From: Candidatus Palauibacter soopunensis
GTDB taxonomy: Bacteria > Gemmatimonadota > Gemmatimonadetes > Palauibacterales > Palauibacteraceae
Length of the DNA: 64,000 bases
Direction: 5' to 3'
NCBI RefSeq assembly: GCF_947581735.1
Contig: NZ_CANPVT010000002.1
Location: forward strand, 522,144-586,143
The position numbers and the translations under genes are program-made. The notes beneath the pieces are model-generated. The model made no database searches, was not told the origin of the DNA, and saw only the letters and a program-made list of their open reading frames with translations. Positions 7,062 through 34,315 of the stretch are shown here, one piece after another (the stretch's first letter is position 1; every line of letters begins with the position of its first letter).

Positions 7062-7067
7062 ATCACC

Positions 7068-15079: not shown

Positions 15080-15115
15080 CGCCTCCTCGCGGATGACTCG
15101 CCGTTCGACCCGACA

Positions 15116-18128: not shown

Positions 18129-18745
18129 GATCGCCCCCTCGGCCAGAGGCTGAACGGTTCGCGCGCGAACACCCGGCGGACCATCGGCTCGAAGAACTCG
18201 AGCGGGAGCGAGTCGTAGTCGGGGTCGAAGGCGCACTGGTCCCAGCGGTGGCAGAAGTCCACCGCGTCCTGGTACCAGGGGTGGTCGCGGTATCGGTCGC
18301 GCACGTTGCGGTCGCGGCCCAGGTGGTGGGCGTAGTAGACGAGCTGGAACAGGCCGTGGTGCCGGACGATCCAGTGCGTGCGCTCGGTCACGAAGGGGCG
18401 GAGCAGCAGGGCGGCCAGTTCGCCGTGGCTGTGCGGGGCCAGCAGATCGTCGATGTCGTGCAGGAGCGCCGCCACGACCATCTCCTCTTCCGCGCCGTCG
18501 CGATGGGCGCGGGTCGCGCTCTGCAGTGAATGTTCGAGCCGGTCGACGTGGTAGCCGCCAACGGAGCCTGACAGCTCGCGGAGGTGCGCCAGCACGCGGT
18601 CGGCGGTATCGGCGGCGAACTCGTCCTCGAGGCGCGCGAGCAGTTCGTAGTCCTCGCGGGTGCCGTCCTCCATGCGCGTGAAACTCACGACGGGGCCGCT
18701 CGGCCCTCTGCCGGCTCCTGCGCTCGTCCCGGCCGTACGGGGCAT
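18125..18745 (-). CDS. HD-domain oxygenase-like protein (PhnZ/TmpB-like mixed-valent diiron oxygenase family)
   Basis: About 206 aa from M26 of ORF 18125..18820 (RBS ggagag). HD motif LLHDIDDLL plus an additional His cluster (HWIVRHHGLFQLVYYAHHLG). Size and motif spacing match the small HD oxygenases rather than phosphohydrolases. Confidence 0.65.
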   Translation of the reverse strand: MPRTAGTSAGAGRGPSGPVVSFTRMEDGTREDYELLARLEDEFAADTADRVLAHLRELSGSVGGYHVDRLEHSLQSATRAHRDGAEEEMVVAALLHDIDDLLAPHSHGELAALLLRPFVTERTHWIVRHHGLFQLVYYAHHLGRDRNVRDRYRDHPWYQDAVDFCHRWDQCAFDPDYDSLPLEFFEPMVRRVFAREPFSLWPRGRS

Positions 18746-18882
18746 GCCGGTCACTCTCCGCTGAGGGTTGGATCGGGGGTTCCTCGCCGCAGCGTCGGCA
18801 GAAGCGAAGGGCATTGTCAAGATCGCTCGGGCGTCCGTAGCGTTCGCTGCAGGCCGGTGACCACGGACTGGGAGGATCGACC

Positions 18883-19998
18883 ATGGGTGCCTCGATCAGC
18901 AGCCTCGCGCAGAACGGCGACGCCCTGACGGCGGTCTGGAGCGACGGCGAACGCACCGATCTCCCCTACCTCTGGCTGCGCGACAACTGCGGCTGCGGAG
19001 AGTGCTGCGTCGAGCAGACCACGGAGAAGCGCTTCCACGTCTTCCGCGTCCCCAGCGACCTGAAGCCGTCGACGGTCGATATCGAAGGCGCCGGATCCGA
19101 CGACGAGGCGATTTCCATCGCCTGGCCGGACGGACACCGCACGCGCCACCGGTCGAGCGACATCCACGGCCTCCTGAGCCGGCCTCGTCTCGAATTGCAG
19201 TACTGGGACGGACGGTTCGAGCCCCGGAGGTTCGACTACCAGCGGTTCCTGGCGGACGACAGCGCGGCGGCGGAACTGATCGAGGAGTTCCTGCGCACCG
19301 GGGTGTGCGTACTGGTCGCCGCTCCCACCGAACCGGATTCGTTGGAGGAGCTCGCCGTCCGTCTGGGCCCGGTCCGGGAGGTGCTGTTCGAGCGCATCCA
19401 CAACGTCAAGCTCGATCCGAAGGGCTACAACATCGCGCATACGGCTCTGGCCGTCGGGGCGCACAACGACTTCACCAGCTACACGTGGCCCCCGAGCGTG
19501 CAGGCGCTGCACATGCTGGTGAACGAGTGCGAGGGCGGCGCGTCGACCGTCGTGGACGGCTTCGGCCTGCTCGAGGCGCTCCGCCGGGAGCACCCCGATA
19601 AGTTCGACGCCCTGTGCTCGGTGCCGGTGCCGTTCCGGATCTTCAGCGACGAGTACGAGTGCTACGCGGCGAACCCCATGGTCGACCTCGACAGTGACGG
19701 GGAGATCAGGATGATCCGCTTCAACACGGCGCAGATGCAGGCCGTTTCCCTGTCGGAGCCCCGGCTGGGCGAGTTCTACGCCGCCTACCACGAGCTGTCG
19801 AGCCGCGTCAACGACCCCGGCGCCCAGGTGACCTTCCGGCTGGAGGGCGGCATGATCCTTCTGTGTGCCGGACACCGCGTCCTCCACGGCCGCACCGAGA
19901 TGGTATCGTCCGGCGCGCGCCACCTGCAGGACGCCTACTTCGAACACGACAACGTCCGCACCCACCTGCGGCTCCTCCGCCGCACCGGCCGCGCCTGA
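18883..19998 (+). CDS. gamma-butyrobetaine hydroxylase/TmpA-like Fe(II)/2-oxoglutarate dioxygenase with N-terminal DUF971 zinc domain
   Basis: 371 aa. CxCxxC...H zinc motif (LWLRDNCGCGECC...DGHRTRH), TauD-fold HxD (AHNDFT) and a distal His (HRVLHGRTE). Divergent from the HD oxygenase gene. Confidence 0.8.
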   Translation: MGASISSLAQNGDALTAVWSDGERTDLPYLWLRDNCGCGECCVEQTTEKRFHVFRVPSDLKPSTVDIEGAGSDDEAISIAWPDGHRTRHRSSDIHGLLSRPRLELQYWDGRFEPRRFDYQRFLADDSAAAELIEEFLRTGVCVLVAAPTEPDSLEELAVRLGPVREVLFERIHNVKLDPKGYNIAHTALAVGAHNDFTSYTWPPSVQALHMLVNECEGGASTVVDGFGLLEALRREHPDKFDALCSVPVPFRIFSDEYECYAANPMVDLDSDGEIRMIRFNTAQMQAVSLSEPRLGEFYAAYHELSSRVNDPGAQVTFRLEGGMILLCAGHRVLHGRTEMVSSGARHLQDAYFEHDNVRTHLRLLRRTGRA

Positions 19999-20031: not shown

Positions 20032-20988
20032 ATGCCGAAGGAGAGTCCCATGAAGAGCCTGGGCGATACGACGCGACGCGACTTCCTGTCTTCCCTCGCG
20101 GGTGCCGGCGCTGTGCTGGCTGCCCCGCGCGCCCTGTTCGGGAGTACGCCCCCGGTCCAGGAGACGCTTCCCACCCGTCCGATCCCGGGAACGGAGGAGA
20201 CGCTGCCCATTGTCGGCTTCGGCTCCTCGAAGCCCGTGCTCGAGATCCCGACCGAAGGGACGGAGCCCGTGGCGAACGTGATCCGCATGCTCCTCGAGCA
20301 TGGGGGCCGCGTCGTCGATACCTCGCCGCGCACGCCGGAGATCGACGCGGAGTTCGGCACGGTCCTGACGGCGCCGGAGTTCGGCGGCCGCCTCTTCGTC
20401 GCCACGAAGATCAACACGGACGGGGAAGCCGCGGGCATCGAGCAGATGCGGCAGAACCAGCGGCTCGTCGGCAGCCGCACCCTGGATTTGCTCGAGGTCG
20501 AGAGCATGCGCGACCTGGACGTGCACTGGCCCAACGTGCTCCGCTGGAAGGACTCGGGCGAGGCGCGCTACATCGGCGTCACCACGTCCAGCATCCCCCA
20601 GCACGAGGCGTTCGAGTCGTTCATGCGGACGCAGCCCCTCGACTTCGTGCAGGTCAACTACTCGGTGATGGAGCCGAACGCGGAGGATCGTCTCCTGCCG
20701 CTCGCGCAGGATCTCGGGCTCGCCGTCCTCATCAACCGTCCGTTCATGAACGGTACCTACTTCCCCCGCGTGAGCGGACACGAGCTGCCCGAATGGGCGG
20801 CCGAGTTCGACTGCGCGAGCTGGGCGCAGTTCTCCCTCAAGTACATCCTCGCCCACCCCGCCGTGACGTGCGCCCTCACGGAAACGACGAATCCGGATCA
20901 CATGGCGGAGAACATCGGCGCCGCCTTCGGCCGCCTCCCCGACGAGGCCACGAAGCGCCGCATGCGGGAGTTGGTCCAGGACTTCTGA
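20032..20988 (+). CDS. aldo/keto reductase family protein with Tat signal
   Basis: 318 aa. TRRDFLSSLAGAGAVLAAP twin-arginine signal and an AKR TIM-barrel body. 34 nt downstream of the dioxygenase on the same strand. Confidence 0.75.
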   Translation: MPKESPMKSLGDTTRRDFLSSLAGAGAVLAAPRALFGSTPPVQETLPTRPIPGTEETLPIVGFGSSKPVLEIPTEGTEPVANVIRMLLEHGGRVVDTSPRTPEIDAEFGTVLTAPEFGGRLFVATKINTDGEAAGIEQMRQNQRLVGSRTLDLLEVESMRDLDVHWPNVLRWKDSGEARYIGVTTSSIPQHEAFESFMRTQPLDFVQVNYSVMEPNAEDRLLPLAQDLGLAVLINRPFMNGTYFPRVSGHELPEWAAEFDCASWAQFSLKYILAHPAVTCALTETTNPDHMAENIGAAFGRLPDEATKRRMRELVQDF

Positions 20989-21002: not shown

Positions 21003-21965
21003 TCAGCGGTCGGCCAGGATCTCTCCCCCGCAAAGGACGAGTTCGTCGTCGATCCAGACTGTGGGAGTGCGGTTGACCGCATCGAAGTGGGTTTTGGCGG
21101 AGACGGTGCCGCCGAGGTTGGCGGAGGTGCCGATGCCGATGTGGACGGTGCCGTTCACGCCTTCGTCGTTGAGCATTTCGCCGGTGAACTCGGTGCAGGC
21201 CGGGTTCAGGCCGAAGGCGAACTGGGCGAGGTTGTAAACCCAGGGGTCGTCCTGTCGGGCCAGCAGGTCCGCGAGGAATTCGGCCTGGTCGCCGCCCTCG
21301 ATGTCGGTGACGAAGCCCTTCGAAATGCGGAAGGTCACGGGTTTGCGGATGGGACCCACGCCGTAGTAGGGGATGCTCCCGTCACACACGAACACGCCCT
21401 CGGCGGTGCCCTGCGCGGGGGCACAGTTCGCTTCGATGTTGGGAACGGCGGAGAAGCCGGGGCCGTCCAGCAGGCAGGCGTGGCTGTTCCCGGTCACGCC
21501 TTCGAGGCTAATGGTGAGATCGGTGCCGGCGGGGTTCGTCACCCGCAGGCGCTCGCCGGCGGTGAGCTTCGCCGCGATGGCGTCGCACAGCGGCTTGCGC
21601 GCGCGGAAGTCCGTGAACAGCCCGCCGTCGCGCATCATCCGCTCGGTGAACGCGGTCATGGACAGAACTCGGGCTCCGGCGCCTATGGCCTCGCGGACCG
21701 CGCGGGTGTGCGCCAGGGCCAGCGTCACGGGCAGGAAGGCGATGTCGGCGGCCGAGAGCGCCGCGGCCACGGCGGGTCCCGGCTCTTCGTTGTCGATCGA
21801 CCGCTCCGGCGGGGTCACGATGCTCGCGACGGCCCCGGCCTCAAGCGCGGCGTCGGCGACGGTCCGGGCGATCGTCATCCGCTCCGGATCCGTGACGATG
21901 ACCACGTCCTCGGCGGGCTGCACGTTGGCGCACGTCCGCACCAGGATCTCCGCGCCTCTCCTCAC
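21003..21965 (-). CDS. M29 aminopeptidase-like / NicX-like family protein (paralog A)
   Basis: 320 aa. N-terminal VQPAEDVVIVTDPERMTIARTVADAALEAGA matches the M29 (aminopeptidase T) pattern, but the length is short for AmpS. Confidence 0.5.
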   Translation of the reverse strand: MRRGAEILVRTCANVQPAEDVVIVTDPERMTIARTVADAALEAGAVASIVTPPERSIDNEEPGPAVAAALSAADIAFLPVTLALAHTRAVREAIGAGARVLSMTAFTERMMRDGGLFTDFRARKPLCDAIAAKLTAGERLRVTNPAGTDLTISLEGVTGNSHACLLDGPGFSAVPNIEANCAPAQGTAEGVFVCDGSIPYYGVGPIRKPVTFRISKGFVTDIEGGDQAEFLADLLARQDDPWVYNLAQFAFGLNPACTEFTGEMLNDEGVNGTVHIGIGTSANLGGTVSAKTHFDAVNRTPTVWIDDELVLCGGEILADR

Positions 21966-21978
21966 GATGGTTCCTGCT

Positions 21979-22941
21979 TCATACCAGCACCTGCTTGTCG
22001 CGCTGGACGACGCGGCAGTCGACGGCGATGGTCGGCTCCCACATCAGCAGGTCGTAGTGCGTCGGGGCCACGATTTCGCCTCCGAGGGTATGGCTGGTGC
22101 CGATGCCGATGTGGATCGTGCCCATGACGCCCTCGTCCTCGAGCATCTCTCCGGTGAGGCGGGCGTTCGGGTTCAGGCCGACGCCCAACTCGGCGACGTT
22201 GAAGCAGTGGGGGTCCTCGAAGGACTCCAGGTGCTCGCGCAGGAAGTCGGCCTGCGTCCCGCCGGTCATCTCCACGATGGCGCCTTCGCGCACGGAGCAG
22301 ACGATGGGCTCCTCGAGGATGCCGATGCCGAGGTAGGGGACCGAGGCGTCGAAGATGAGCGTGCCCTCCGCCGAACCGGTCACGGGCACGACGTTGACCT
22401 CGATGTCGGGGACCGGGGCCAGTTCGCCGGGTTCCGGGATGTTCGTGAGGACGTTCGCGACGCGACCCTCGATCCCGAAGCGGAGATCCGTTCCGCGCGG
22501 GGAAGTGAGCCGCACGGACTTGCCCTCCGTGAAGGCCGCGCCAAGGCGGCGGCAGACACCGGCCTGCGCCTCGAAGTCGGTCTCGAGCAGCGCGGGGCTG
22601 GTCATGATCGCGTCGGTGTACGCCGTCATCATGCAGACGCGCCCGCCCGCCTCCAGTGCGGCCCGCATCGCGCGCGTGTGGGTGATCGAGATGCGCACGG
22701 GGGAGAAAATCACGTCGGCCTCGGCCATAGCCCGGGCGACCGGAGAGGGCGGCTCCTGCCCGTCCTGATTCCGCATAGGAATAATGCACACGGTGACGTC
22801 GGCGCCGGCGTCGCGGGCGGCCGCGGCCACGGCATCCGCGTACCGCCGCATCGTCGGGTCGGTCACGATCACGACGACTTCACCCGGCTGGACGCGCCCG
22901 TTCACGTGCACGAGCCGCCGCGCGCCGGGCGAGAGATCCAT
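21979..22941 (-). CDS. M29 aminopeptidase-like / NicX-like family protein (paralog B)
   Basis: Tandem paralog of the previous gene (VQPGEVVVIVTDPTMRRYADAVAAAARDAGA). Start taken at M18 of ORF 21979..22992 (RBS gagg), which aligns with the paralog A start. Confidence 0.5.
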   Translation of the reverse strand: MDLSPGARRLVHVNGRVQPGEVVVIVTDPTMRRYADAVAAAARDAGADVTVCIIPMRNQDGQEPPSPVARAMAEADVIFSPVRISITHTRAMRAALEAGGRVCMMTAYTDAIMTSPALLETDFEAQAGVCRRLGAAFTEGKSVRLTSPRGTDLRFGIEGRVANVLTNIPEPGELAPVPDIEVNVVPVTGSAEGTLIFDASVPYLGIGILEEPIVCSVREGAIVEMTGGTQADFLREHLESFEDPHCFNVAELGVGLNPNARLTGEMLEDEGVMGTIHIGIGTSHTLGGEIVAPTHYDLLMWEPTIAVDCRVVQRDKQVLV

Positions 22942-22963
22942 CCCGGCCTCAGCCACGGCCCCG

Positions 22964-24172
22964 TCAGCCACGATCCCTCGCGAAAAACTCATCGAATCGA
23001 CCGTCGAAGATGATCGCGGTGTAGCCGTCTCCGGTCGTGTTCGTCGCGGTGCGCAGCATGTCGGGGATACCGCCGGAGAGCGCGATCCAGCTCGCGATGA
23101 ACTCGCCCTGAGCCTGACCTTCCAGTCCCAGCATGCTCGCGAACAGCGTCGCGCTCCACAGCGCCGTCCCCATGCCGGCCGGGAGCCCGGGAGCGGCGAT
23201 CGTGAACAGGACGACGGCGGGCCACGCGGCGAGCATCATCATCCAGCTCAATTCCAGGCCGAACACGTAGCTGACGACGAAGGGTCCGTACGCGACGTAG
23301 GCCAGCGCGCTCGCGTCCAGGTTCGCGACGGCGCCGAACGGGAGGACGAAGTCGGCCACCTCGTCGCGGACGCCGACCTTCTTCGCGTTGGCGAGGTTGA
23401 CCGGGAGCGTCGCCAGCGAGGAACACGTGCCCGCGGCGAAGACCGCGGTGGGCACGTAGTACTCACTCAACACGGGCCCCACGGGCCGGCGTCCGACCCT
23501 CCGGACGAGCACGAACGTGTAGAACGCCCACCAGATGAGGACGAGGGCGCCGGTGTAGGCGGCCATCGTGAGATAGTGGGAGAGCCCCAGGCTCGCGCCG
23601 AAGCGCACGCCCAGCGTGATCCCGAAGGCGAGGATGAGCGGGAGCATGACGTAGGCCAGCTTGCCGCCCGCCTTCTCGATCGAGTCGGCGACTCGTCGGA
23701 GTACGCGGTAGGTCGGATCGTGCCGGGCGCCGAAGGCTCCGAGCAGGACTCCGGCGAGGATCGCGAGCAGCGGCCAGGAGGCCCCGCCGTCGCCGAGGCT
23801 CCGCAGCATGGCCGCGGCTTCGGTCCATACGCCCCGGTCCCCCGTGGCCAGCGGGATGCGGAAGATCGTGGCGGAGGTCACGACGGCGATGAGTCCGGCG
23901 ACCGTCGACGTGAAGACGTACCACAGGACGACCGCGCCCGCGAAGCGCCCGGCGAGCCCGCGACGAATCAGGGTCGCGATGGCCGGGCTGAGGGCCGCGA
24001 GGATCAGCAGCGGCACGACGGCGACAACCCAGGCGATAAGCGTGCCCGTGGCGTCGGCCACCGGCGCCAGCGGCACGGGGAGGGACCCACCCGCAGCCAG
24101 CCCTCCCGCCAGCGCCAGGATCGTCCAGACGTACGCGGGGACGTTACGCCTCCGCCGCCCTCGGGCCCTCAC
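22964..24172 (-). CDS. dicarboxylate/amino acid:cation symporter (DAACS/SDF family)
   Basis: 402 aa polytopic protein with GTG start. Sodium:dicarboxylate symporter-family features. Confidence 0.75.
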   Translation of the reverse strand: MRARGRRRRNVPAYVWTILALAGGLAAGGSLPVPLAPVADATGTLIAWVVAVVPLLILAALSPAIATLIRRGLAGRFAGAVVLWYVFTSTVAGLIAVVTSATIFRIPLATGDRGVWTEAAAMLRSLGDGGASWPLLAILAGVLLGAFGARHDPTYRVLRRVADSIEKAGGKLAYVMLPLILAFGITLGVRFGASLGLSHYLTMAAYTGALVLIWWAFYTFVLVRRVGRRPVGPVLSEYYVPTAVFAAGTCSSLATLPVNLANAKKVGVRDEVADFVLPFGAVANLDASALAYVAYGPFVVSYVFGLELSWMMMLAAWPAVVLFTIAAPGLPAGMGTALWSATLFASMLGLEGQAQGEFIASWIALSGGIPDMLRTATNTTGDGYTAIIFDGRFDEFFARDRG

Positions 24173-24397: not shown

Positions 24398-25666
24398 ATG
24401 GATCGCCCGTCATCACCGCTCCCGCGCCGCCGCTTTCTCCACCTGACCGGCGCCGCCCTGGGCCTCGCCGCGACCTCCGGCTGCGCAACCGCCGGGAGGA
24501 CGCGCAGTACGGGGGCCGGCCTGCTGTCTGCCGGTGCAGCCACGGACCGCACCTGGACCCCCGAGCGCTTCGATCCGTGGATCGAACTCGACCGCGCCGC
24601 CTGGACCCAAAACGTCCGGGAGGCCGCGCGGCTCGCGAGCGGGCGCCCCATCCTCGCGGTCGTGAAGAACAATGCGTACGGCCTGGGCGACCGTGCGGTC
24701 GGGCCGCTCCTCGCCGGGATGCCCGAGGTGGGCGGCATCGCCTCCGTGCGCGTCGAGGAGGCGCTCGCCATGCGGGAGGAAGGCGTGACCAAGCCGATCG
24801 TGGTCATGGCCGAGGGATCCGAGGACGAGATCGAGGAGATGGCGAGGCACGACATCCTCCCGTCCGTGTGGCTGGACGATGCGCCCGCGCGGCTGCGGAG
24901 CGTGTCCAGGCGACTCGGCCGTCCCGTGCCCGTCCAGCTCTTCATCGATACGGGGATGAACCGCGAGGGCATGCCGTACACCCGCGCGCGCCGCTGGATC
25001 GAGGAGCTCGTGCAGAGCGAATACGTCGACGTGAACGGCACCTACACCATGTTCATTCACGATCTCGACTTCAACCGGGAGCAGCTCGCGCGCTTCGAGG
25101 AACTCCTCGCGTGGGCCCGCGGGAAGAACCTTCCCCTCGGCACCCTCCACGCTTCACCCTCCTTCGAGCTGTTCAACCTGCCCGAGGCGCACTACGACAT
25201 GGTGCGTCCCGGGAACGCGCTGTTCGGAAACCACCTCTCCGGTGGGGAGGGCGCCGGGGAGATGGCCGACCTCAGGCCCGTGTTTCGCATGAACGCGCGC
25301 GTGGTGCGGGTCGAACGCCTCGAGCCGGGTGACGGCGCGGGCTTCCGCCACACCTTCACCGCCGACCGGGCCACCTGGGTGGCGCTGCTGCCGGTCGGCC
25401 GCACCGACGGCTATCCGTCCGAGGCGAACGGGACCTGCGAGGTGCTGATCAACGGCCGCCTGTACCCGGTCGCCGGAGGGGTCAACTCCGCGCACACCAT
25501 TCTCGACATCGGTCCGGAGAAGACGGTCGAGGTCGGCGACGTCGCGACCCTCATCGGCCCCGACCATCCGTCCGTGCTTCCCCACACCGTCGCCGAACGG
25601 ACGGGCCGCGGCTTCCTCGGCATCATCCAGTTCATGAACCCCCGGCTCCCGAGACGGGTGGTGTAG
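24398..25666 (+). CDS. alanine racemase-family PLP enzyme with Tat/lipoprotein signal (periplasmic broad-spectrum racemase-like)
   Basis: 422 aa. RRRFLHLTGAALGLAATSGC signal. PLP-lysine block AVVKNNAYGLG and the alanine racemase C-terminal beta domain. Confidence 0.8.
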   Translation: MDRPSSPLPRRRFLHLTGAALGLAATSGCATAGRTRSTGAGLLSAGAATDRTWTPERFDPWIELDRAAWTQNVREAARLASGRPILAVVKNNAYGLGDRAVGPLLAGMPEVGGIASVRVEEALAMREEGVTKPIVVMAEGSEDEIEEMARHDILPSVWLDDAPARLRSVSRRLGRPVPVQLFIDTGMNREGMPYTRARRWIEELVQSEYVDVNGTYTMFIHDLDFNREQLARFEELLAWARGKNLPLGTLHASPSFELFNLPEAHYDMVRPGNALFGNHLSGGEGAGEMADLRPVFRMNARVVRVERLEPGDGAGFRHTFTADRATWVALLPVGRTDGYPSEANGTCEVLINGRLYPVAGGVNSAHTILDIGPEKTVEVGDVATLIGPDHPSVLPHTVAERTGRGFLGIIQFMNPRLPRRVV

Positions 25667-25679
25667 GCCCCGCTCCCGG

Positions 25680-26972
25680 TCAGCCGCAGCGCGCCGCGAT
25701 GGCCGCGATCGCGGCGTCGATCTCCTCGCGGGTGTTGAAGAAGTGGATCGAGAGGCGGAAGTCGCGCTCCTCCCGGACCGGAGAGGCGAGGATCCCCTCG
25801 TCTTCGCGCAGGTCGCCGTACAACTGCGTGGCGTCGCACCCCTCCGGGAGCTGGACCACGAACACGCCCGAGCGGTCCGCGTGCGCCCGCGGAGACGACA
25901 CGCCGAGTCCCTCGGTGGCGTCCACGACTTCGATCGCGTGGTCGACGAGCGACTGGATCCGCCCCTCGATCCTCTCCAGTCCAATGCCCTCCATCCACTC
26001 CACCGCGCGGGCGAAGCCGGCGAAGTCCGCGAGCGCGCGGGTGCCGAACTCGTACCTCGCGGCGCTGGGGAGCAGGGTGTAGGCACCCTCGTAGTCCATC
26101 GTCGCGTGGCTGTGGGAACCGGCCCAGCTGAGCTGCACGTGGTCCAGCATTTCGCGACGCACGAAGAGCGCGCCGGCGCCCTTGGGGCCGAGCAGCCACT
26201 TGTGGCCGCAGGTGGAATAGCCGTCGCAGCCGAGGGCGCGGAAGTCGGTCGCGACGCAGCCGGGGCCCTGTGCGCCGTCGAGGTGGTAGCGCACGCCGCG
26301 GGAGCGCAGCAGGTCGCCCAGTTCCGCGGACTCGTCGGTCCGCAGCGTTCGTCCGTTGTTCCGCGACACGTGGCTGATGCTCACCATCCGCGTGCGGTCG
26401 GAGAGTTGGCCGCGAACCTCGTCGATGAGTCCGGTTCCGGGATTCAGGTCGATCTCGCGGATCGCGATTCCGAACCGGTCGCGGAGGACGTACCACGGGA
26501 CGACGTTGGCGGGGTGCTCCGTGTTGGAGATCACGACCTCGTCGCCCGGCTCCCAGTTCAGGCTCCAGGCGAGGATGGAGATCCCCTCGGAGGTGCTGTG
26601 CGTGAGCGCGACCTCTTCCGTCGCGGCCCCGAATACGCGCCCCAACTGAGCCCGCAGGTCGGGCTCGATGCGGGCCATCTCGTCCGAGATGCGGGGCTCG
26701 GCCGGGCTCCTGTTCTGGAAAGCGAGCCGTTCATGGACGTGGTCGATAACAGCGTTCGGAGCGGGGCCGATCCCGCCCGTCTGGAAGTACAGGCTCTCCG
26801 TCGAGGCGGGGATCTCGGCGCGCGCGCGGGCCACCCAGGCCTCCTGCGGACGACCCGAATCAGCGGGCCGCGATGCCGGATCGGCCAGGGCGAGCCGCCC
26901 GACGGGCACGATCGGGGCCAGCGCCAGCGCGCCCGCGGACCGGCGGAGGAAGTGGCGTCGACTCGTGTTCAT
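25680..26972 (-). CDS. aminotransferase class V (cysteine desulfurase/isopenicillin-N epimerase-like) with Tat signal
   Basis: 430 aa from MNTSRRHFLRRSAGALALAPIV (residue 445 of track ORF 25680..28304, RBS gagga). PLP-lysine region GYSTCGHKWLLGPKGAGALF. Start overlaps the upstream permease stop (ATGA). Confidence 0.8.
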   Translation of the reverse strand: MNTSRRHFLRRSAGALALAPIVPVGRLALADPASRPADSGRPQEAWVARARAEIPASTESLYFQTGGIGPAPNAVIDHVHERLAFQNRSPAEPRISDEMARIEPDLRAQLGRVFGAATEEVALTHSTSEGISILAWSLNWEPGDEVVISNTEHPANVVPWYVLRDRFGIAIREIDLNPGTGLIDEVRGQLSDRTRMVSISHVSRNNGRTLRTDESAELGDLLRSRGVRYHLDGAQGPGCVATDFRALGCDGYSTCGHKWLLGPKGAGALFVRREMLDHVQLSWAGSHSHATMDYEGAYTLLPSAARYEFGTRALADFAGFARAVEWMEGIGLERIEGRIQSLVDHAIEVVDATEGLGVSSPRAHADRSGVFVVQLPEGCDATQLYGDLREDEGILASPVREERDFRLSIHFFNTREEIDAAIAAIAARCG

Positions 26973-28429
26973 TCCGGGTCCTCGTCGCTGAGGATGAGCC
27001 AGCGGAGCCTCCTGTCGCTCACCTCGCGGCGGAGAGGCGCGGCGGCGCGGTAGAAGACGAGCCCGAGCGCCGCCCAGACGACGAGGACGATCCACTCGGC
27101 GGGGATCCGGCCGCCCGCGCCATGGAAGGGTTCCCAGATCGAAGCTCCGAGCAGCCCCAGCGCGATGACGGCACTGAGAACCAGGAAGCCCCGGCCGCCG
27201 GGCACGGTGTAGGGACGCGGATGGTCGGGGCGCGTCTTCCGCAGCCGCAGGACGCCCAGCACGACGACGAGGAAGACGATCATGGCCGAGATCGCGGCGC
27301 CTCCGACGATGACGAGGATGGCGTTGCGGCCGAACAGCGCCCCCACGCTCCCCATGACGGCCACGAAGATGACGGCGGCCGACGGCGAACCGTAGCGGTC
27401 GTGCACCCTGGCGAGGCGGTGGGGGATCATGTGCGCCCGAGCCATGGCGAAGACGATCCGCGTGGAGGCGAAGAAGATCGCGTTCCACGTCGTGATCAGC
27501 CCGCAGAGTCCGGCGAACAGCACGACCCGGCCCAGGAACGGCGAGCCCAGGGCGGCCTCGATCGCGGCCGCGGCCGGAAGCTCGGACGCGAGCAGTTCCG
27601 CGCGGGGCATGCTCATGGCCGTCGCCAGAATCACGAGGCAGTAGAAGACGAGCGCGAACAGGATGGAGGCGCCCATGACGCGCGGCAGGAGCCGCAGCTT
27701 CGCGCCCTCCTCCACCTCCTCCATCGCCTGCGGAATCGTGTCGAAGCCGGCGAACCAGAACGCGGCGGTCCCGAGCACGATGCCCACGCCGACCAGGGCC
27801 GCCCCCGGCGTCGTCCCGCTGAACATGGGCTCCAGGTTCGCGACGCTGCCCCCCACGACGCCCGCGACGACGAAGATGAGAGTGAGGATGATGAGCCCCG
27901 CCGTCATCAGGTCCTGGAACCAGGCCGCCGTCTTTCCGCCGCGGTAGTTGATGAACGTGATCGCGGCCATCACGGCGAGTCCGAGGGCGAGGCTCCACAG
28001 CCGCACCTCCTGCCCCAGCAGCGTGTAGATGACCGGACCGCCGAACCCCGGGACGAGAGCGGACACGACCCATTCCACGGAGATCGCCTCGAAGGAGGTC
28101 GTGAAGATGTAGGAGAACGCAAGGAACCACGCGGCGGCGAAACTCCAGCGCGCTCCCCACGCCTCGAATACGTACGCGACCTCGCCGCCGGTGACCGGGT
28201 ACGCGGCCGCCATCTCCGAGTAGCAGAGTCCGATCGCGAGAATGCCGAGGCCGCCGAGCACGAACGCGATGATGGCCCCGATCGCGCCGGCGCCGCTCAG
28301 CCACGCCCCCATGACCGTGATCCAGCCGACCCCAATGATGGTGCCGAAGGCGAGCGAGAAGAGCGACCGGAGCCGGATCCCCCGCCCGAGTTCCTCCCGT
28401 CCGCCCTCCGCCCCCGGCTGGCCCGGCAC
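26969..28429 (-). CDS. APC-family amino acid permease
   Basis: About 486 aa, 12 TM helices. GTG start (residue 130 of ORF 26969..28816) overlaps the BKACE stop (TAGTG). Confidence 0.8.
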   Translation of the reverse strand: MPGQPGAEGGREELGRGIRLRSLFSLAFGTIIGVGWITVMGAWLSGAGAIGAIIAFVLGGLGILAIGLCYSEMAAAYPVTGGEVAYVFEAWGARWSFAAAWFLAFSYIFTTSFEAISVEWVVSALVPGFGGPVIYTLLGQEVRLWSLALGLAVMAAITFINYRGGKTAAWFQDLMTAGLIILTLIFVVAGVVGGSVANLEPMFSGTTPGAALVGVGIVLGTAAFWFAGFDTIPQAMEEVEEGAKLRLLPRVMGASILFALVFYCLVILATAMSMPRAELLASELPAAAAIEAALGSPFLGRVVLFAGLCGLITTWNAIFFASTRIVFAMARAHMIPHRLARVHDRYGSPSAAVIFVAVMGSVGALFGRNAILVIVGGAAISAMIVFLVVVLGVLRLRKTRPDHPRPYTVPGGRGFLVLSAVIALGLLGASIWEPFHGAGGRIPAEWIVLVVWAALGLVFYRAAAPLRREVSDRRLRWLILSDEDPE

Positions 28430-29388
28430 TAGCTGTACCGTGTCGGCGTGGCCGAAAGCCCGAGCATTTCGCGCGCCTGCGCGGGCGTGGCGACCTCGCG
28501 GTTCAGCTCGTGTGCGATCCGGACGGCCCGCTCCACGAGCTGGCGGTTGCTCTCCACCTTGTGACCGCGGCGGTAGTAGATGTTGTCCTCGAGGCCCACG
28601 CGGACATGGCCTCCCATGAGAGTGGCGAGCGTGGTCATGGGAAGCTGGTGCGGCCCGATGCCGGAGCACAGCCAGACGGAACCCTCGGGGAACTCCCGGA
28701 CCATGTTCACGACGTTGTCGACGGTCGGCCAGCTCGACGTCTGGTAGCCCATCACGGTCTGAACCCAGTAGGGCGCCTCGATGAGGCCCTGCGCCATCAA
28801 GTCCCGGATCACCCACCCGCAGCCGGGGTGGTAGGTCTCGAGTTCGGGCTTGATGCCGCGCGCCTTCATCTCCGCCGCGAAGTGCGCGATCTGCCTGTAG
28901 GAGAACGGCGTGCAGTCGTCGAAGTCGATCGCGGGGCGGGGGTGCGTGTACTCCTCCCCGCGCGGCTTGAGTTTGAACTTGCCCATGTCCGGGGCGAGGT
29001 TCAGCGACGCGACCTCGGGGTTGGCGTCGAGGCAGGACAGGCGCTGTTCATCGTCCATCCACAGGTCGCCGCCGGTGGTATTGTTGATGATGATCTCGGG
29101 GCAGCGCTCGCGCAGGCGGCGGTTCGCCTCGAGCCAGACCTCGGTCGTCGTCGCCCCCTTCCACAGCGTCTCGGGGTTGCGGGCGTGGATGTGCACCATC
29201 GAGGCGCCTGCGTCGTACGCCTCGCCGACGGACTCGGCCAGCTCCTCGGACGTCTCCGGGAGGGCGTCGTTATACTCCTTGCCCTGGATGCCGCCGTTCG
29301 CGGCCAGACAGATGATGACGGGGGGCATGCCGCCGGCGACCCTGTCCATGTAGGCGTAGGGGTCGCCGTAGTTCCAGGTTCTGGTCAT
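28429..29388 (-). CDS. beta-keto acid cleavage enzyme (BKACE/DUF849, 3-keto-5-aminohexanoate cleavage enzyme family)
   Basis: 319 aa TIM-barrel protein with a close Kce-family match (YAYMDRVAGGMPPVIICLAANG...IHARNPETLWKG...GHVRVGLEDN). Confidence 0.85.
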   Translation of the reverse strand: MTRTWNYGDPYAYMDRVAGGMPPVIICLAANGGIQGKEYNDALPETSEELAESVGEAYDAGASMVHIHARNPETLWKGATTTEVWLEANRRLRERCPEIIINNTTGGDLWMDDEQRLSCLDANPEVASLNLAPDMGKFKLKPRGEEYTHPRPAIDFDDCTPFSYRQIAHFAAEMKARGIKPELETYHPGCGWVIRDLMAQGLIEAPYWVQTVMGYQTSSWPTVDNVVNMVREFPEGSVWLCSGIGPHQLPMTTLATLMGGHVRVGLEDNIYYRRGHKVESNRQLVERAVRIAHELNREVATPAQAREMLGLSATPTRYS

Positions 29389-29488
29389 CTGCTCCTCGGA
29401 AGGCTGTGAAGGCTGTTATCGTCTCAAGAGGTTGTCCCCGGTCCTCGGGGAGCCTTGGCCATTTCACACCGATTCACAAGAGGATGCC

Positions 29489-30391
29489 ATGTCCGGTACG
29501 GAGCGTGCCGCAGGGACCGTAGCCATCATCGGCGCGGGAACGATGGGACGACGGATCGCCTACGGCTGCGCCGTGCGGGGGGTGGGCGCGCGGCTGCACG
29601 ATGTCTCGGAGGAGGCGCTCGCCGGAGCGCTGGTTACCGTGCGCGAGTTGCTCGAGGCCGCGGACGAAGGGGACGGGCACGGGGCCGGCGCGACACATGG
29701 CGTCGTGGAGGCGTGCAGGGACCTCGAGGACTGCGTGCGGGAGGCGGACTGGGTCATCGAGACGGTCCACGAAGACCTCGAACTGAAACGCGTCGTCCTC
29801 GGGCGGATCGGCGCGGCGGCGCCGCCGGAGGCGTTCATCGCCTCCAACACCTCCTCGCTGCCGGGTTCGTGGATGGCGGAGTCGACGGGGCGTCCCGGGC
29901 GGTTCACGAACATGAACTTCGGCCCGCCGGAGGACCTCAAGGTCGAGGTCATGGGGCACCCCGGCACCGACCCCGCGACGATCGATGCGGCGAAGCAGTT
30001 CCTGCGCCGGCTCGGCCTCGTGCCGATCGTCGCCCGTCGCGAGATCCAGGGCTATCCGACGAACCGGATCTGGCGCGCGATCAAGAAGGAGTCGCTGCAG
30101 CTGGTCGCCGGCGGATACCTGAGCGCCGAAGAGATCGACCGGGCGTGGATGCTCGACTGGGGCACGCCGATTGGGCCGTGCGGACTTATGGACGTGGTCG
30201 GACTCGACGTCGTGCGCGACATCGAGAACGTGTACTACGAGGCCTCCGGCGACCCGTCCGACAAGCCGCCCGACTTCCTCGACCGGATGGTCGAGCGGGG
30301 GGAACTCGGTGTGAAGTCGGGGAAGGGGTTCTACACCTACCCGTCGCCCGTCTTCGAACGGGAGGGCTGGCTCACGGCCTCCGACGACTGA
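29489..30391 (+). CDS. 3-hydroxyacyl-CoA dehydrogenase family NAD-binding protein (carnitine/3-hydroxybutyryl-CoA dehydrogenase-like)
   Basis: Starts at M20 of ORF 29432..30391 with RBS aagagga. Rossmann block IIGAGTMG and a C-terminal HADH dimerisation domain. Divergent from the BKACE operon. Confidence 0.8.
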   Translation: MSGTERAAGTVAIIGAGTMGRRIAYGCAVRGVGARLHDVSEEALAGALVTVRELLEAADEGDGHGAGATHGVVEACRDLEDCVREADWVIETVHEDLELKRVVLGRIGAAAPPEAFIASNTSSLPGSWMAESTGRPGRFTNMNFGPPEDLKVEVMGHPGTDPATIDAAKQFLRRLGLVPIVARREIQGYPTNRIWRAIKKESLQLVAGGYLSAEEIDRAWMLDWGTPIGPCGLMDVVGLDVVRDIENVYYEASGDPSDKPPDFLDRMVERGELGVKSGKGFYTYPSPVFEREGWLTASDD

Positions 30392-30394
30392 CGC

Positions 30395-30832
30395 CTACCA
30401 GGTCACGACGCCGTCCCGGCCGACGCGCAATTCGTCGCCGGTCTCGACCCGGTCGAGCAGTTCGGGCCCCAGCCGGTCCACGCACACGATCGCCGTGTCG
30501 AGCCAGACATCGGCCAGGATGAGGCCGCCGGCCGTGAGCGGATCCACCTCCCCGGGCAGGAGGAGTGCGGCGGGGGCGAGGCCGAGTTCCGCGATGCGCT
30601 CCCAGCAGGGCCCGGCCGACGTCGATCCTACGCAGAAGGGCGCGAGGATGATCCGCCCGGTGAGCGGTTCGCCGAAGAGTTCGGTGTTCTGCGGATCCCC
30701 GCACACGGCCGTGTCGATTCCCCCGTCGAACTGGTCGCAGAAGCTCGCGAAGGGGTTGAACCCGGCCCGCGACACGGCGGCGGGCGCCGCGGTCTCGCCG
30801 GCGATGACCGCGCGGCCCCGGAAGCGCGGCAT
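30395..30832 (-). CDS. AcnX type II small (swivel, DUF126) subunit
   Basis: 145 aa from M124 of ORF 30395..31201 (MPRFRGRAVIAGET...ILAPFCVGSTSAGPCW). ATG overlaps the large-subunit stop (TGATG). Confidence 0.7.
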   Translation of the reverse strand: MPRFRGRAVIAGETAAPAAVSRAGFNPFASFCDQFDGGIDTAVCGDPQNTELFGEPLTGRIILAPFCVGSTSAGPCWERIAELGLAPAALLLPGEVDPLTAGGLILADVWLDTAIVCVDRLGPELLDRVETGDELRVGRDGVVTW

Positions 30833-32172
30833 CAGGCCTGCACCTCGGAGGAGGTCCCGAAGGAGGCCCGCATGGAGCCCGCGGCGGGGGTTCCCGCGCC
30901 CCCCGTCACCATCACCCGCAGGAGCGCGTCGTCGTCGAGCATGTACACGTTGCGACTGTAGTAGCGGAGCTTGTTCGAGTTCGTGACCACGCAGGCGGGC
31001 GCGAGGATCGGATCCTGCATGAACGCTTCGAGGCAGAAGGAGCCCACGTGTCCTCCCGCGAGAGCGAGGGTCGCGAAGCCCGGATGTTCGGCGCGGAAGC
31101 GGGACACCACGTCGGGGGCCGCGACGAAGACCGTCTCCACCGCGAGGCGGTCGCGTCCGGCGCGCGCGAGTTCGCCCTCCACCGCATCGGTCCACGCGCA
31201 CAACTGGTCGTAGGTGAGGTGTGGGCAGCCGAGCAGGACCTTGTTCGGCCGCAGCTCATCGACTGGGCGGTCGGCGCGCAGCGACGCTCCGACCGACTCG
31301 ATCTGTCCCTCGTCGATCATCAGCCGGCGAGCGTCGTCGCGGATGAGCCGCCGGCCGTACCGCTTCGCCTCCACGGTGACGCCCTCCACGTGGAAGAGGC
31401 CGACCCCGCCCCCCACGGAGGCGTTCGTCCCGAAATCGCGCAGGAACTTCGCGCGGGCCGGGTGTTCGCCGCCATCGAGCATGTCCGCGAGGCCCGTCAC
31501 CCAGGGGATCCCGTCCCCGACTTCCCGCCCGACGATGTAGCCGAGCACCTGTCCGTTGATCGGCCCCGCCGCCTCGACCTCGACGAGCCAGCTCGCGCGC
31601 CGCCCCTCGTCCGTCAGCAGGCCGGCGAGCGGCGTCTTGCCGACGACGTTGGAGATGAGATCGATGATCCCGGGATTCCGGTGCGTGCGCGCGCCGATGA
31701 CGGAGTTCGCGTACACCACCGCGGAGGACTCCGCCCAGGCCACGATCTGGCCGTACGAGGGCCGGTTCGCGACCTCCTCGAACCAGGGCGTGCAGGTCAG
31801 GCCGCCCGCGTCGCGCAGGCCCAGCTTCGTGAGCGCCTCCCGGTAGCGCAGCTCCATCGGGTAGGCGCGGGCAAGCCGCTGCCGCTGGTTGTCTGTCAGG
31901 TCCGATAGCGTCTCGTTGAGGATCGTGGCCGGGTCGGCCGTGAACGGAAGCGCGGCCCGGACCCCGGCGTCGACGAGCGACTCGAGAAACTCCGTCCGCG
32001 CCCCGACCCCGGGCTTGGACTCCGGAATCACGAGGTGCCCCGGACCCTCCACCGGCACGAGCCGCTCCGCATCCATCGCCTCGCCGAAGCGGACCATGGT
32101 GAGGAGGAGCTTGCGGGGGATCTCCCCCCGGCTCCCGTCGAGGACCTCTCGCTCGTCTCGGGTCAGATCCAT
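30832..32172 (-). CDS. AcnX type II large (DUF521) catalytic subunit (cis-3-hydroxy-L-proline dehydratase / phosphomevalonate dehydratase family)
   Basis: About 446 aa from M70 of ORF 30832..32379 (MDLTRDEREVLDGSRGEIPRKLLLTMVRFGEAM), typical AcnX N-terminus and body. Confidence 0.8.
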   Translation of the reverse strand: MDLTRDEREVLDGSRGEIPRKLLLTMVRFGEAMDAERLVPVEGPGHLVIPESKPGVGARTEFLESLVDAGVRAALPFTADPATILNETLSDLTDNQRQRLARAYPMELRYREALTKLGLRDAGGLTCTPWFEEVANRPSYGQIVAWAESSAVVYANSVIGARTHRNPGIIDLISNVVGKTPLAGLLTDEGRRASWLVEVEAAGPINGQVLGYIVGREVGDGIPWVTGLADMLDGGEHPARAKFLRDFGTNASVGGGVGLFHVEGVTVEAKRYGRRLIRDDARRLMIDEGQIESVGASLRADRPVDELRPNKVLLGCPHLTYDQLCAWTDAVEGELARAGRDRLAVETVFVAAPDVVSRFRAEHPGFATLALAGGHVGSFCLEAFMQDPILAPACVVTNSNKLRYYSRNVYMLDDDALLRVMVTGGAGTPAAGSMRASFGTSSEVQA

Positions 32173-32363
32173 CGCACCGTCGACTGTCACCTCTTTGGAC
32201 GTTCTCGGCCGTTCCCGGAGGCTCGGTCGCGGAGTGGCGGATTCACAAGACCGGCGCCATGTACGAAAACCTTCGTTGACAGGGTGCACCTCACCACGTA
32301 TTCTTTCGTACGAAGATGTTCGTATATGCGTGGGCGGGGACGTTTCCAGGAGGGGGTGAAGCC

Positions 32364-32738
32364 TTGAGGGATCCGACATTCAGCGACCGGGAGCTGGACA
32401 TCATGAGCGTCCTGTGGCGCCGCGGGTCCGGTTCCGTGAGCGAGGTCATGGACGCGCTCGAGGACGAGGTCGGCTACACGACCGTGCTCAAGTTCCTCCA
32501 GATCCTGGAGAAGAAGGGCGCCGTCCGGCACGAGGCCGAAGGTCGGGCGTATCGCTACTTCCCGCTCGTGGCCTCCGAGGCGGCGGGAGAAACGGCGCTG
32601 GCCCGGATCCGGGACAAGATCTTCGGCGGGTCGGCCGAACTCGTCCTCGCCCAGCTCATCTCGGGCCGGGAGGTCTCGCCGGAGGAACTGGAGCGCATGC
32701 GGCGGATCCTCGATGAACTGGAGGAGGGCGAGCTGTGA
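32364..32738 (+). CDS. BlaI/MecI/CopY-family transcriptional repressor
   Basis: Probable TTG start after ggaggggg gives LRDPTFSDRELDIMSVLWRRGSGSVSEVMDAL, the winged-helix penicillinase-repressor N-terminus. Confidence 0.8.
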   Translation: MRDPTFSDRELDIMSVLWRRGSGSVSEVMDALEDEVGYTTVLKFLQILEKKGAVRHEAEGRAYRYFPLVASEAAGETALARIRDKIFGGSAELVLAQLISGREVSPEELERMRRILDELEEGEL

Positions 32739-34174
32739 CTCTGGCCACGATGATCTATGGGCTGATCGTCGCCGTCCTTGTCGCCGGGGCCGCGTGGTGC
32801 CTCGACCGGGGTCTCCGGGCCCACGGGCGGCCGACTCGCTGGGTCTGGATCGGCGCCCTCGGGGTTGGCGGGCTGGCGCCGTTCTTTCCCCGATTCCTTC
32901 CGGCGGCGGCAACGGCGGATGGCCCCGGGCCCTTCGCCCTTCCCGTCCGCGCCCTCTATGAACTCGGAACTCCGGCGCCTTCGCTCCCGGAGCAGGGCGG
33001 GAGCTTCCTCGCCGGGGTCGGGATGGAGGATTCTCTGGGAGCCCTCTGGGTCGTGGGTTCCATCTTCGTCCTTGTCCTCTTCGCCCTGCTCTGCCTCCGC
33101 CTGCGGCGGTTGCGCACGACGTGGGAGCCCCGGGACGTCTGCGGCGAGGAAGTGCTGCGGTCGGAGAAGTTCGGGCCGGCCGTCGTGGGGCTCATCCGGT
33201 CACGGATCGTCCTTCCGTCGTGGGCCTTCGGCCTCGGCAAAAAGGAACTCGAGATGGTCGTGCTGCACGAACGGGAACACGTGCGGGCGTGCGATCCGAT
33301 CCTCCTGACAGTGGGGCTCCTGCTCGCGGCGCTCTCGCCCTGGAACCCCGCGGTCTGGTGGTCGCTCGCCAGGCTCCGGCTCGCCGTGGAAGGGGACTGC
33401 GACCGCCGCGTTCTGGCCCGCGGCACACCCGCCCGGAGCTACGCCCGCCTGCTTCTGACGGTTGCCGCCGGGTGTCGGCGGACGCCGGATCCGGCGCCGG
33501 CCCTGATCCGCGGCGGCCACTCGGTAATCGAAAGGAGACTCATGATGATCAGGACCGCGACGAGGAAGCCCCGAATCCGGGCTTCCATCCTCACCGCCGC
33601 AGCCGGGTTGGGCCTGTTCGCCCTCGCCTGCGACACCCCGATCCCGCAGAGCCCGGCCGAGCCCGAGCGCGCCTCGCGCGTGGAGGGCGTCGTCAGCGCG
33701 GAGGGAGTCGCCAACTGGGACGGTATGGAAGTGGAGGTCAAGTACGAGGATGGAACCTCCCTGGTCCACTCGGGAAAATGGGCGGTCGATCCGGAAGCAG
33801 GTGTCGGATACGTGGATGAAGACGGAACCTTCCAGGCGCTCGACCTCGGCCCGGAAGCCGAAGCGCGCGTTCGCAGCACCGTCGAGCGCCTCGAGCGCGA
33901 GGTCGAAATTGTGCGTGAGAGGCTCGATGGGCGCCTGCAATCGGGCGAAATCACGAAAGAGGCGATCCCGAGGGATCTTTGGCTGAGCCTTGAAGGCGTG
34001 AGCGAGCGCATCGGGGAGTTGACTCCCAGGCTGGAGGAGTTGGCCATGGAGGTCCGCCGGCTCGACGCGGCTGCCGAGGCAGGCGAGATCACGTACGACG
34101 AGTGGGAGCAAATGCTACGGACCTACATGGAGGCGCATAACGCCCGGCTGCGCGCGCGCGACAAGCCGCACTGA
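32735..34174 (+). CDS. BlaR1/MecR1-family M56 peptidase signal transducer with non-canonical C-terminal domain
   Basis: GTG overlaps the blaI-like stop (GTGA). TM region plus HEREHV zinc motif. The C-terminal 200 aa is coiled-coil/acidic and has no SxxK penicillin-binding sensor. Confidence 0.8.
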   Translation: MTLATMIYGLIVAVLVAGAAWCLDRGLRAHGRPTRWVWIGALGVGGLAPFFPRFLPAAATADGPGPFALPVRALYELGTPAPSLPEQGGSFLAGVGMEDSLGALWVVGSIFVLVLFALLCLRLRRLRTTWEPRDVCGEEVLRSEKFGPAVVGLIRSRIVLPSWAFGLGKKELEMVVLHEREHVRACDPILLTVGLLLAALSPWNPAVWWSLARLRLAVEGDCDRRVLARGTPARSYARLLLTVAAGCRRTPDPAPALIRGGHSVIERRLMMIRTATRKPRIRASILTAAAGLGLFALACDTPIPQSPAEPERASRVEGVVSAEGVANWDGMEVEVKYEDGTSLVHSGKWAVDPEAGVGYVDEDGTFQALDLGPEAEARVRSTVERLEREVEIVRERLDGRLQSGEITKEAIPRDLWLSLEGVSERIGELTPRLEELAMEVRRLDAAAEAGEITYDEWEQMLRTYMEAHNARLRARDKPH

Positions 34175-34242
34175 TCCGCGACCCCGGCGCCGGAGACCGT
34201 TGCGGCCCGGCGTCCCCGGCGGCACCGTAACTCCGTTCGGTC

Positions 34243-34283
34243 GCGCCTCCGAACCCTGACCCGAGGGTCGGACTCGGAGGCGC
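34243..34283 (+). promoter_or_regulatory. perfect 10 bp inverted repeat gcgcctccga...tcggaggcgc (21 nt spacer) between the blaR1-like and tannase genes
   Basis: Seen directly in the sequence. Could be a T-less terminator or an operator site. Confidence 0.35.
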
Positions 34284-34315
34284 CAGTCGCGGGACACTCC
34301 GACCCGGGGAAACAC

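Follow-up and report, generated by a model that had tools for sequence, protein, structure and literature searches.

The locus described here raises two questions: what do two adjacent genes for apparently exported pyridoxal 5′-phosphate (PLP) proteins encode, and do their products work together? The genes, hereafter E and F, lie in a stretch of 64,000 nucleotides from Candidatus Palauibacter soopunensis (contig NZ_CANPVT010000002.1, positions 522,144 to 586,143; hereafter the window, to which all positions refer). An original prediction had described them as a periplasmic amino acid racemase and an unusual class V aminotransferase-fold enzyme, both exported by twin-arginine translocation (Tat) and acting together before uptake of their products by flanking DAACS and APC transporters. 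The coordinates, reading frames, and Pfam domains of the two convergent genes were confirmed (E: Ala_racemase_N, 2e-42, and Ala_racemase_C, 1.6e-21; F: Aminotran_5, 8e-50), and 13 nucleotides separate their facing stop codons. The main new element that emerged from the analysis is the family to which E belongs, a clade of predicted Tat lipoproteins with the alanine racemase (Alr) fold that lacks the catalytic tyrosine Tyr265 and has an invariant histidine at the catalytic position of the ornithine racemase OrnR.

E is composed of a signal and low-complexity tether (residues 1–50) followed by a two-domain Alr fold (residues ~56–422), and the AlphaFold model of E matched alanine racemases with Foldseek TM scores of 0.80 to 0.87, indicating a complete alanine racemase fold. 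We collected the best 120 homologs of E (62–100% identity), of which 108 are at least 405 amino acids long, and read the active site from these 108 aligned to G. stearothermophilus Alr, whose sequence was verified residue for residue as that of PDB 1l6f. E keeps Lys90, Tyr94, Arg189, and Arg270, which correspond to Lys39, Tyr43, Arg136, and Arg219 of Alr, and shares the two-domain fold and these four residues with Alr/DadX, BsrV, and P. putida Alr. E differs from these enzymes in carrying a Tat signal with a lipobox and in much of the remaining active site. The position of the catalytic Tyr265′ is occupied by Phe316 and that of His166 by Met218 in 108/108 homologs; Ser364 and Ala365 stand at Met312′ and Asp313′, and Leu407 stands at Tyr354, all invariant in the same set. 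At the position of Tyr284′ the family has Arg or His, and at that of the carbamylated Lys129 it has Phe or Tyr. The Tyr-to-Phe correspondence was also obtained in HMMER alignments of E to VanT (PDB 4ecl) and T. tengcongensis Alr (PDB 4y2w). Because Phe316 and Met218 replace Tyr265′ and His166 throughout the family, E cannot be counted among the canonical alanine racemases; judged from these residues, canonical two-base racemization is ruled out, and E could racemize only by means of another base. The racemase label originally given to E was therefore not borne out in its canonical sense.

E nevertheless bears the database name "alanine racemase" because it passes the cutoff of NCBIfam TIGR00492 (182.7 against 168), and it is 100% identical to the NCBI protein of that name from Candidatus Palauibacter soopunensis. 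The broad-spectrum racemases of the Bsr type use Sec-type signals. E has no Tyr of the Lys/Tyr pair that defines this group and scored 115 against a cutoff of 434 with NF009879, which bears just the name "alanine racemase" and which we take to represent a signal-peptide-bearing, Bsr-like group. E resembles the Bsr enzymes in being predicted to act outside the cytoplasm, a location established for the periplasmic racemase BsrV (PMC7890096). No second, canonical alr gene was found in the window or in the retrieved loci. The E clade has so far been seen only among Gemmatimonadota-labeled sequences, and a literature search on Tat-dependent alanine racemase lipoproteins yielded nothing relevant.

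The closest precedent for the altered active site of E is the Salmonella ornithine racemase OrnR, a member of the Alr superfamily without the catalytic Tyr (Phillips et al., 2025; PMC13397332). In OrnR, Asn161 replaces the stacking His166, and Cys164, three residues further on, acts as the base on the L face; activity is lost in the C164A variant (PMC13397332). E likewise lacks both the Tyr and the His, having Met218 in place of Asn161, and at the +3 position it has His221, which is invariant in the family and is our candidate for the replacement base. By the OrnR-type criterion, a catalytic Cys, E falls outside the group, as it has His221 there, although the architecture is similar. OrnR also differs from E in that it is cytoplasmic and its gene shares an operon with that of a D-ornithine/lysine decarboxylase (PMC13397332). 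Two distant Tat-bearing relatives from metagenomes (42% and 36% identity to E) keep the tyrosine in an "SY" motif and have Glu at the +3 position, so that in the few lineages seen loss of the Tyr and presence of the His go together.

We next considered where the two proteins act. Tat signals were called by rule and backed by conservation; the features sought were an S/T-R-R-x-F-L-K motif near the N-terminus, an uncharged and moderately hydrophobic region (h-region) of about 12–13 or more residues after the RR, and a c-region with a cleavage site. Under a stricter rule, the RR had to precede 12 or more uncharged residues. The N-terminus of E, MDRPSSPLPRRRFLHLTGAALGLAATSGC, contains the motif P-R-R-R-F-L-H; RR-x-[F/L..] is present in 108/108 of the homologs of at least 405 residues, and 101 of the 102 homologs that retain the N-terminal region pass the stricter rule. 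The uncharged stretch after the RR of E comprises 21 residues and ends in a lipobox ~16 residues past the RR. A lipobox closes the h-region and follows the PROSITE-type rule [LIVMFWSTAG]2-[LIVMFYSTAGCQ]-[AGS]-C, which E fits with A-T-S-G-C29. R10, R11, and C29 are invariant in the E family alignment (A2), and the lipobox Cys was found in 99/101 homologs. A variable tether rich in Ser, Thr, Ala, Gly, and Pro comes next. These features led us to predict that Tat exports E as a flexibly tethered lipoprotein, which would be lipid-modified at Cys29 and held at the membrane by a linker of ~30 residues.

The N-terminus of F, MNTSRRHFLRRSAGALALAPIVPVGRLALA followed by DP, consists of a twin-arginine motif, the h-region SAGALALAPIVPVG, and a c-region with Arg26 and A-L-A before Asp31. 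R5 and R6 are invariant in the F family alignment (A1), and RR-x-F/L-L occurs in every F homolog that keeps its N-terminus; the entries without it begin within or beyond the signal and resemble truncated gene calls. The uncharged core of F has 14 residues, and 84/108 F homologs pass the stricter rule. From the signal up to the first conserved residue of the catalytic domain, neither length nor sequence is constrained in either family, as expected of a signal plus a linker; AlphaFold confidence (predicted local distance difference test) is below 50 for residues 1–50 of E and for residues 1–4 and 16–39 of F. The conservation across E and F homologs indicates that the RR motifs are not there by chance. 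Export of F is, on this evidence, highly probable, and Tat export of folded, PLP-loaded E and F, as the original prediction had it, remains the most likely reading of conserved Tat signals on PLP-fold enzymes. Both proteins would acquire PLP and their fold in the cytoplasm and then cross the inner membrane via Tat, by analogy with PvdN (class V fold) and PtaA, which Tat exports in their PLP-bound state (PMC6206403).

At least seven proteins in the window, E and F included, carry Tat-like signals (Table 1), and given this number two adjacent Tat substrates are not statistically remarkable there. Tat seems to be a routine and major export route in the source organism. This abundance of signals, the lipobox Cys29 of E, and the absence of its catalytic Tyr were points that the original prediction had missed.

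The structure model of F has a predicted TM score of 0.80. F conserves the PLP-stacking His153, Asp232, Gln235, the Schiff-base Lys258, whose S-T-C-G-H-K motif aligns with SGHK of SufS, and the carboxylate-binding Arg406; an insert at residues 282–310 is invariant but poorly modeled. The best matches of F were the group II desulfurases SufS/CsdB and the cystine C-S lyase C-DES (116–121 bits, 23–27% identity, TM 0.76–0.85). The persulfide Cys of SufS is replaced in F by Leu395 (HHCAQP in SufS, ILASP in F; HMMER alignment to PDB 8d8s), and L395, S397, and P398 are invariant across the family. C-DES (PDB 1elq) also has no active-site Cys, aligned with F over its full length in HMMER, and gave the best target-normalized TM (0.85). 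SufS and C-DES are cytoplasmic, whereas F has a Tat signal. Among known exported enzymes, F resembles PvdN, a tailoring enzyme of Pseudomonas pyoverdine (PDB 5i90), in its class V fold, PLP, and twin-arginine signal (TM 0.81), and the NCBIfam PvdN model aligns with F from end to end, signal included. Overall, SufS, C-DES, and PvdN are similar to F in roughly equal measure. F stayed far short of all curated NCBIfam cutoffs (SufS, 155 against 475; PvdN, 85 against 650). We rejected an IscS/SufS/NifS desulfurase on the basis of the invariant Leu395 and scores far below the desulfurase cutoffs, so that the result named in the original prediction as refuting it, a desulfurase with an intact persulfide loop, does not arise. 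PvdN itself was rejected as well on its score; identity is only 22%, the SufS models score higher, and no pvd genes are nearby, the neighbors of F being a β-keto acid cleavage enzyme (BKACE), the APC permease, the Alr-like gene, and the DAACS carrier. Kynureninase and EgtE were likewise discarded, with NCBIfam scores far under their cutoffs.

An aminotransferase cycle would need an amino acceptor in the periplasm. We therefore infer that F is most likely a cosubstrate-free lyase, desulfinase, or decarboxylase acting there on a free α-amino acid; cystine and cysteine sulfinate as candidate substrates are guesses. Import of its product would then fall to the co-transcribed APC permease and, ancestrally, to the DAACS carrier.

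The F clade is tight (~58% identity or more), and an exhaustive profile search placed one Tat-bearing relative next to it at 41%. Beyond it lie many proteins of ~390 amino acids (33–40% identity) without the N-terminal extension, which mostly have no Cys at the loop position in the C-terminal sequences inspected; a rough motif count gave no Cys near the loop in 81 of the 118 relatives with a locatable motif. None of ten F relatives scanned reached a curated NCBIfam cutoff. RR motifs were present in ~24/150 of the nearest cluster representatives, and three Tat-type class V proteins (P0277, P0293, and the class V neighbor at locus L103, described below) are closer to PvdN than F is (141–146 bits). 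Exported class V enzymes thus appear to be a recurrent, mostly unstudied theme of which F represents one clade, and the view that such an enzyme is unusual does not hold, PvdN and PtaA being known already. A literature search on exported desulfurase-like enzymes other than PvdN found nothing relevant. Members of the F clade share 63–97% identity across metagenome-assembled genomes (MAGs) of Gemmatimonadota, Acidobacteriota, and Opitutales, many of them from sponges or corals by name; between Gemmatimonadota, Acidobacteriota/Vicinamibacteria (L048–L076), and Opitutales (L077–L078) the identity is 62–73%. As this seems high for vertical descent across phyla, it suggests that F has spread horizontally among co-resident host-associated symbionts.

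The gene order around F was compared in 80 species-representative genome loci carrying F and 19 further loci. In the window, the stop codon of gene H lies within the GTG start of gene G (TAGTG) and that of G within the ATG of F (ATGA), so H-G-F is a translationally coupled BKACE-permease-F operon with H first and F last, and E is on the opposite strand. The E-F adjacency occurs in 13/80 genome loci (L001–L012 and L015, from Palauibacter and closely related Gemmatimonadota MAGs) and in one metagenome locus (L089). In 14 loci of sister genera, F, D, and C follow one another on one strand without E. In other Longimicrobiales, F comes after an AzgA-like Xan_ur_permease and before an S15 peptidase, and in Acidobacteriota it lies between a polytopic membrane protein of no known family and a zinc-ribbon membrane protein. 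Eleven further contexts of E contain no class V gene. The simplest reading is that E stands at the F-D junction only in the Palauibacter lineage, by insertion there or by loss elsewhere. Several sister genomes (L016, L085, and relatives) have a gene for an AAA_14/DUF4143 ATPase at the same junction on the opposite strand, as if insertions recurred at this point.

This comparison ruled out a conserved E-F operon. Neither gene's function could be read from its neighbors: the partners of F differ by lineage (APC; DAACS with NicX-like genes; Xan_ur_permease with S15; membrane proteins), and exported S15/S9 peptidases, amidohydrolases, and sortilin/BNR proteins are often near E with none conserved. 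The proposed link to transporters holds for F, which is coupled to the APC permease and stands beside the DAACS gene in sister genera; no single partner is consistent across lineages. We consider it probable that E and F are genuine exported PLP enzymes, each functioning independently of the other, and that their adjacency in Palauibacter is lineage-specific, not the mark of a conserved two-enzyme system.

Several observations pull against parts of this account, and each has to be set beside the rival explanation that it favors. For the signals of F, 24/108 homologs fail the stricter rule; three of these are N-terminally truncated entries that had nevertheless passed the selection, and most have a short core (11 residues in the counted examples) interrupted by Arg or Lys. 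In addition, the h/c-region (L)AP(I/V)VPVGRLA (residues 17–30, ~26883–26924) is conserved even across phyla, whereas the linker that follows is not. Such conservation is unusual for a cleaved signal, and F may stay anchored by it, or the segment may be a chaperone-binding site or have another role. One could go further and regard the RR motifs as non-functional by-products of Arg-rich coding at 69% GC content or of miscalled starts, with both enzymes in the cytoplasm. The composition of the genome (66–72% GC, as in the window), the several F entries in databases that begin downstream of the signal, and the short h-region of F, with its two prolines and, in some homologs, an Arg inside, fit that idea. 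We regard it as very improbable, however, because S/T-R-R-x-F-L, the h-region, and the AxA site or lipobox are kept at 62–100% identity while the linker varies, the start of F is fixed by the ATGA overlap with the upstream gene, E without Tyr265 could not be a cytoplasmic housekeeping Alr, and the ~45-residue extension is simply missing from the close relatives of F that are cytoplasmic. For the chemistry of E, the correspondence between His221 and Cys164 of OrnR is one of sequence register only, and a 4-residue deletion relative to Alr directly follows His221, both of which tell against His221 as the catalytic base. Alanine racemase mutants at Y265 reportedly gain D-specific aldolase activity, and reviews discuss the Y265A variant as an engineered aldolase. 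E may be no racemase at all, its lysine carrying out D-face chemistry unaided (elimination, retro-aldol cleavage, or a transamination half-reaction), or it may be a non-catalytic lipoprotein that binds PLP or amino acids. The invariance of Phe316 and Met218 and a substrate entryway remodeled at Tyr284′, Tyr354, and Lys129 agree with this, as do the exported peptidases and amidohydrolases frequent near E; a passage of the OrnR report cites Y265A and Y265S variants of alanine racemase as transaminating D-alanine, though not its L enantiomer (PMC13397332). A non-racemase E is a serious possibility, if appreciably short of an even chance. Yet OrnR, equally Tyr-less, still racemizes with its base at the exact position of the invariant His221, and the strict conservation of the PLP- and carboxylate-binding residues points to catalysis rather than mere binding. 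The mechanism we prefer, tentatively and at nearly even chance, keeps E as an amino acid racemase or epimerase in which Lys90 would serve the D face and His221 the L face, as OrnR does with Cys164.

The original prediction that E and F work as a pair in the periplasm, processing D/L-amino acids or aminated metabolites before DAACS/APC uptake, can draw on their convergent arrangement with a 13-nucleotide spacer between two amino acid-type carriers and on the coupling of F to the permease. A further locus also speaks for it. At L103 (5001–7655), an E homolog with 66% identity converges at 16 nucleotides on a different class V gene, which has 26% identity to F and PvdN as its top NCBIfam match (141 bits); its in-frame upstream extension, DRRIFLNGLGVASASFL, indicates that the called start probably truncates a DRRIFLNG Tat signal. 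This adjacency hints at a real functional link between E and class V enzymes and thus weighs against independence. With ~12 contexts seen, two independent adjacencies (Palauibacter and L103) are more than chance would roughly predict at ~0.3% per context, an estimate that assumes 5–6 class V genes in a genome of ~3500 genes. However, the E-F adjacency itself is confined to one genus and the sister-genus loci do without E; four complete Longimicrobiales genomes (OZ220732, OZ244837, OX638356, and OZ242028) appear to hold both genes more than 10 kb apart; L104, of the same E subclade as L103, has no class V neighbor; E lies on the other strand behind a 225-nucleotide upstream region of its own; and the canonical racemase base is absent from E. 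A dedicated pair is, on balance, unlikely. About as doubtful is a broader proposal in which the E family is a membrane-tethered, Tat-exported Alr-fold class, using a Lys/His pair or new D-specific chemistry, that repeatedly cooperates with exported Cys-less class V enzymes and would form a periplasmic salvage module in Gemmatimonadota symbionts for unusual (D- or sulfur) amino acids from host-derived peptides. Independent action of E and F, with a shared address in Palauibacter, remains the reading that we adopt.

Table 1. Positions of genes E and F, of their functional sites, and of other genes mentioned in the text.
Feature	Position	Strand	Description
Gene E	24398..25666	+	422 aa; alanine-racemase-superfamily (fold-type III) PLP protein
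E signal	24425..24484	+	R10-R11-R-F-L-H-L, uncharged h-region, lipobox A-T-S-G-C29 (predicted)
E Lys90	24665..24667	+	PLP Schiff-base lysine, Lys39 of G. stearothermophilus Alr; 108/108
E His221	25058..25060	+	Invariant, 3 residues past Met218; position of OrnR Cys164; candidate replacement base
E Phe316	25343..25345	+	Position of catalytic Tyr265′; Phe in 108/108
Gene F	25680..26972	-	430 aa; class V-fold (fold-type I) PLP enzyme with Tat signal
F twin-arginine motif	26943..26963	-	S4-R5-R6-H-F-L-R10
F Lys258	26199..26201	-	PLP Schiff-base lysine, S-T-C-G-H-K, aligned with SufS SGHK; invariant
F Leu395	25788..25790	-	Position of the SufS persulfide Cys
Gene A	20032..20988	+	Aldo/keto reductase, Tat-like signal TTRRDFLSSLAGAGAVLAAP; Palauibacter-only synteny
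Genes B, C	21003..22992	-	Two NicX / peptidase-M29-like proteins; weak Pfam M29 matches; downstream of D
Gene D	22964..24172	-	DAACS/SDF symporter; Pfam SDF 1.1e-35; divergent from E
Gene G	26969..28429	-	APC-family amino acid permease; Pfam AA_permease_2 1.5e-49
Gene H	28429..29388	-	BKACE; Pfam BKACE 3.8e-82; below all NCBIfam equivalog cutoffs
Gene I	29432..30391	+	3-hydroxyacyl-CoA-dehydrogenase family
Genes J, K	30395..32379	-	Aconitase X (large and swivel subunits)
γ-Glutamyltranspeptidase	632-2482	+	Tat-like signal and lipobox
Flavin-reductase-like protein	14345-15115	-	Tat-like signal and lipobox
Tannase/feruloyl-esterase family	34175-35845	+	Weaker RR motif
Molybdopterin-binding oxidoreductase subunit	35568-38738	+	Tat-like signal

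The 225 nucleotides between the divergent genes D and E form an upstream region shared by both. In spacer sequence at the locus, a scan not tuned to this phylum found no sigma-70 promoter or intrinsic terminator, and an Rfam search over the whole window returned tRNAs only, with no riboswitch or other RNA element at the E/F locus. Homologs of genes B and C in L085 carry a precomputed NicX label (PF26233). On the other side of F, the BKACE gene, the divergent 3-hydroxyacyl-CoA-dehydrogenase-family gene, and the aconitase X subunit genes are clustered (28429–32379), all scoring below NCBIfam equivalog cutoffs. This set is reminiscent of carnitine/β-keto acid and hydroxyproline catabolism, which would be plausible for host-derived substrates. 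The nearest genomic loci belong to Candidatus Palauibacter and other Longimicrobiales/Gemmatimonadota MAGs, many of which are probably sponge- or coral-derived, judging from species epithets and isolate prefixes. Sponges and corals are among the habitats given for the phylum in the description of Palauibacterales (PMC10469786).

Elsewhere in the window, an open reading frame of the eukaryote-type sterol reductase family ERG4/ERG24 (15116–16513, - strand; Pfam 5.5e-36) lies directly upstream of, and on the same strand as, the flavin-reductase-like gene with the Tat signal and lipobox, which may indicate sterol or isoprenoid modification in a sponge symbiont. Two genes are related to the cell envelope, one for a 765-residue beta-lactamase-family/penicillin-binding-protein-like protein (16668–18965, - strand) and one for a BlaR1-type M56 peptidase sensor (32717–34174, + strand). 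Thirteen tRNA genes are packed into two tight arrays on the + strand, nine in ~1 kb (2519–3484) and four in ~450 bp (6829–7268), a density unusually high for a bacterial chromosome.

Tat-exported PLP enzymes such as PvdN and PtaA and periplasmic racemases were already known, the E/F pair in itself is ordinary, and the idea of a dedicated racemase-epimerase pair should be dropped. What the locus does bring to light is that more than 100 sequence clusters have been named "alanine racemase" automatically, by passing TIGR00492, even though the textbook mechanism is impossible for them and an extracytoplasmic location is predicted. The naming of the E family is thus an annotation error and at the same time a lead for enzymology. 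With F, the few exported class V PLP enzymes known gain a strongly conserved clade, whose distribution suggests that a periplasmic function in amino acid processing has spread horizontally among host-associated bacteria. If His221 is indeed the second base of E, the Alr superfamily would have a third acid/base solution besides the Tyr of the canonical enzymes and the recently shown Cys of OrnR.

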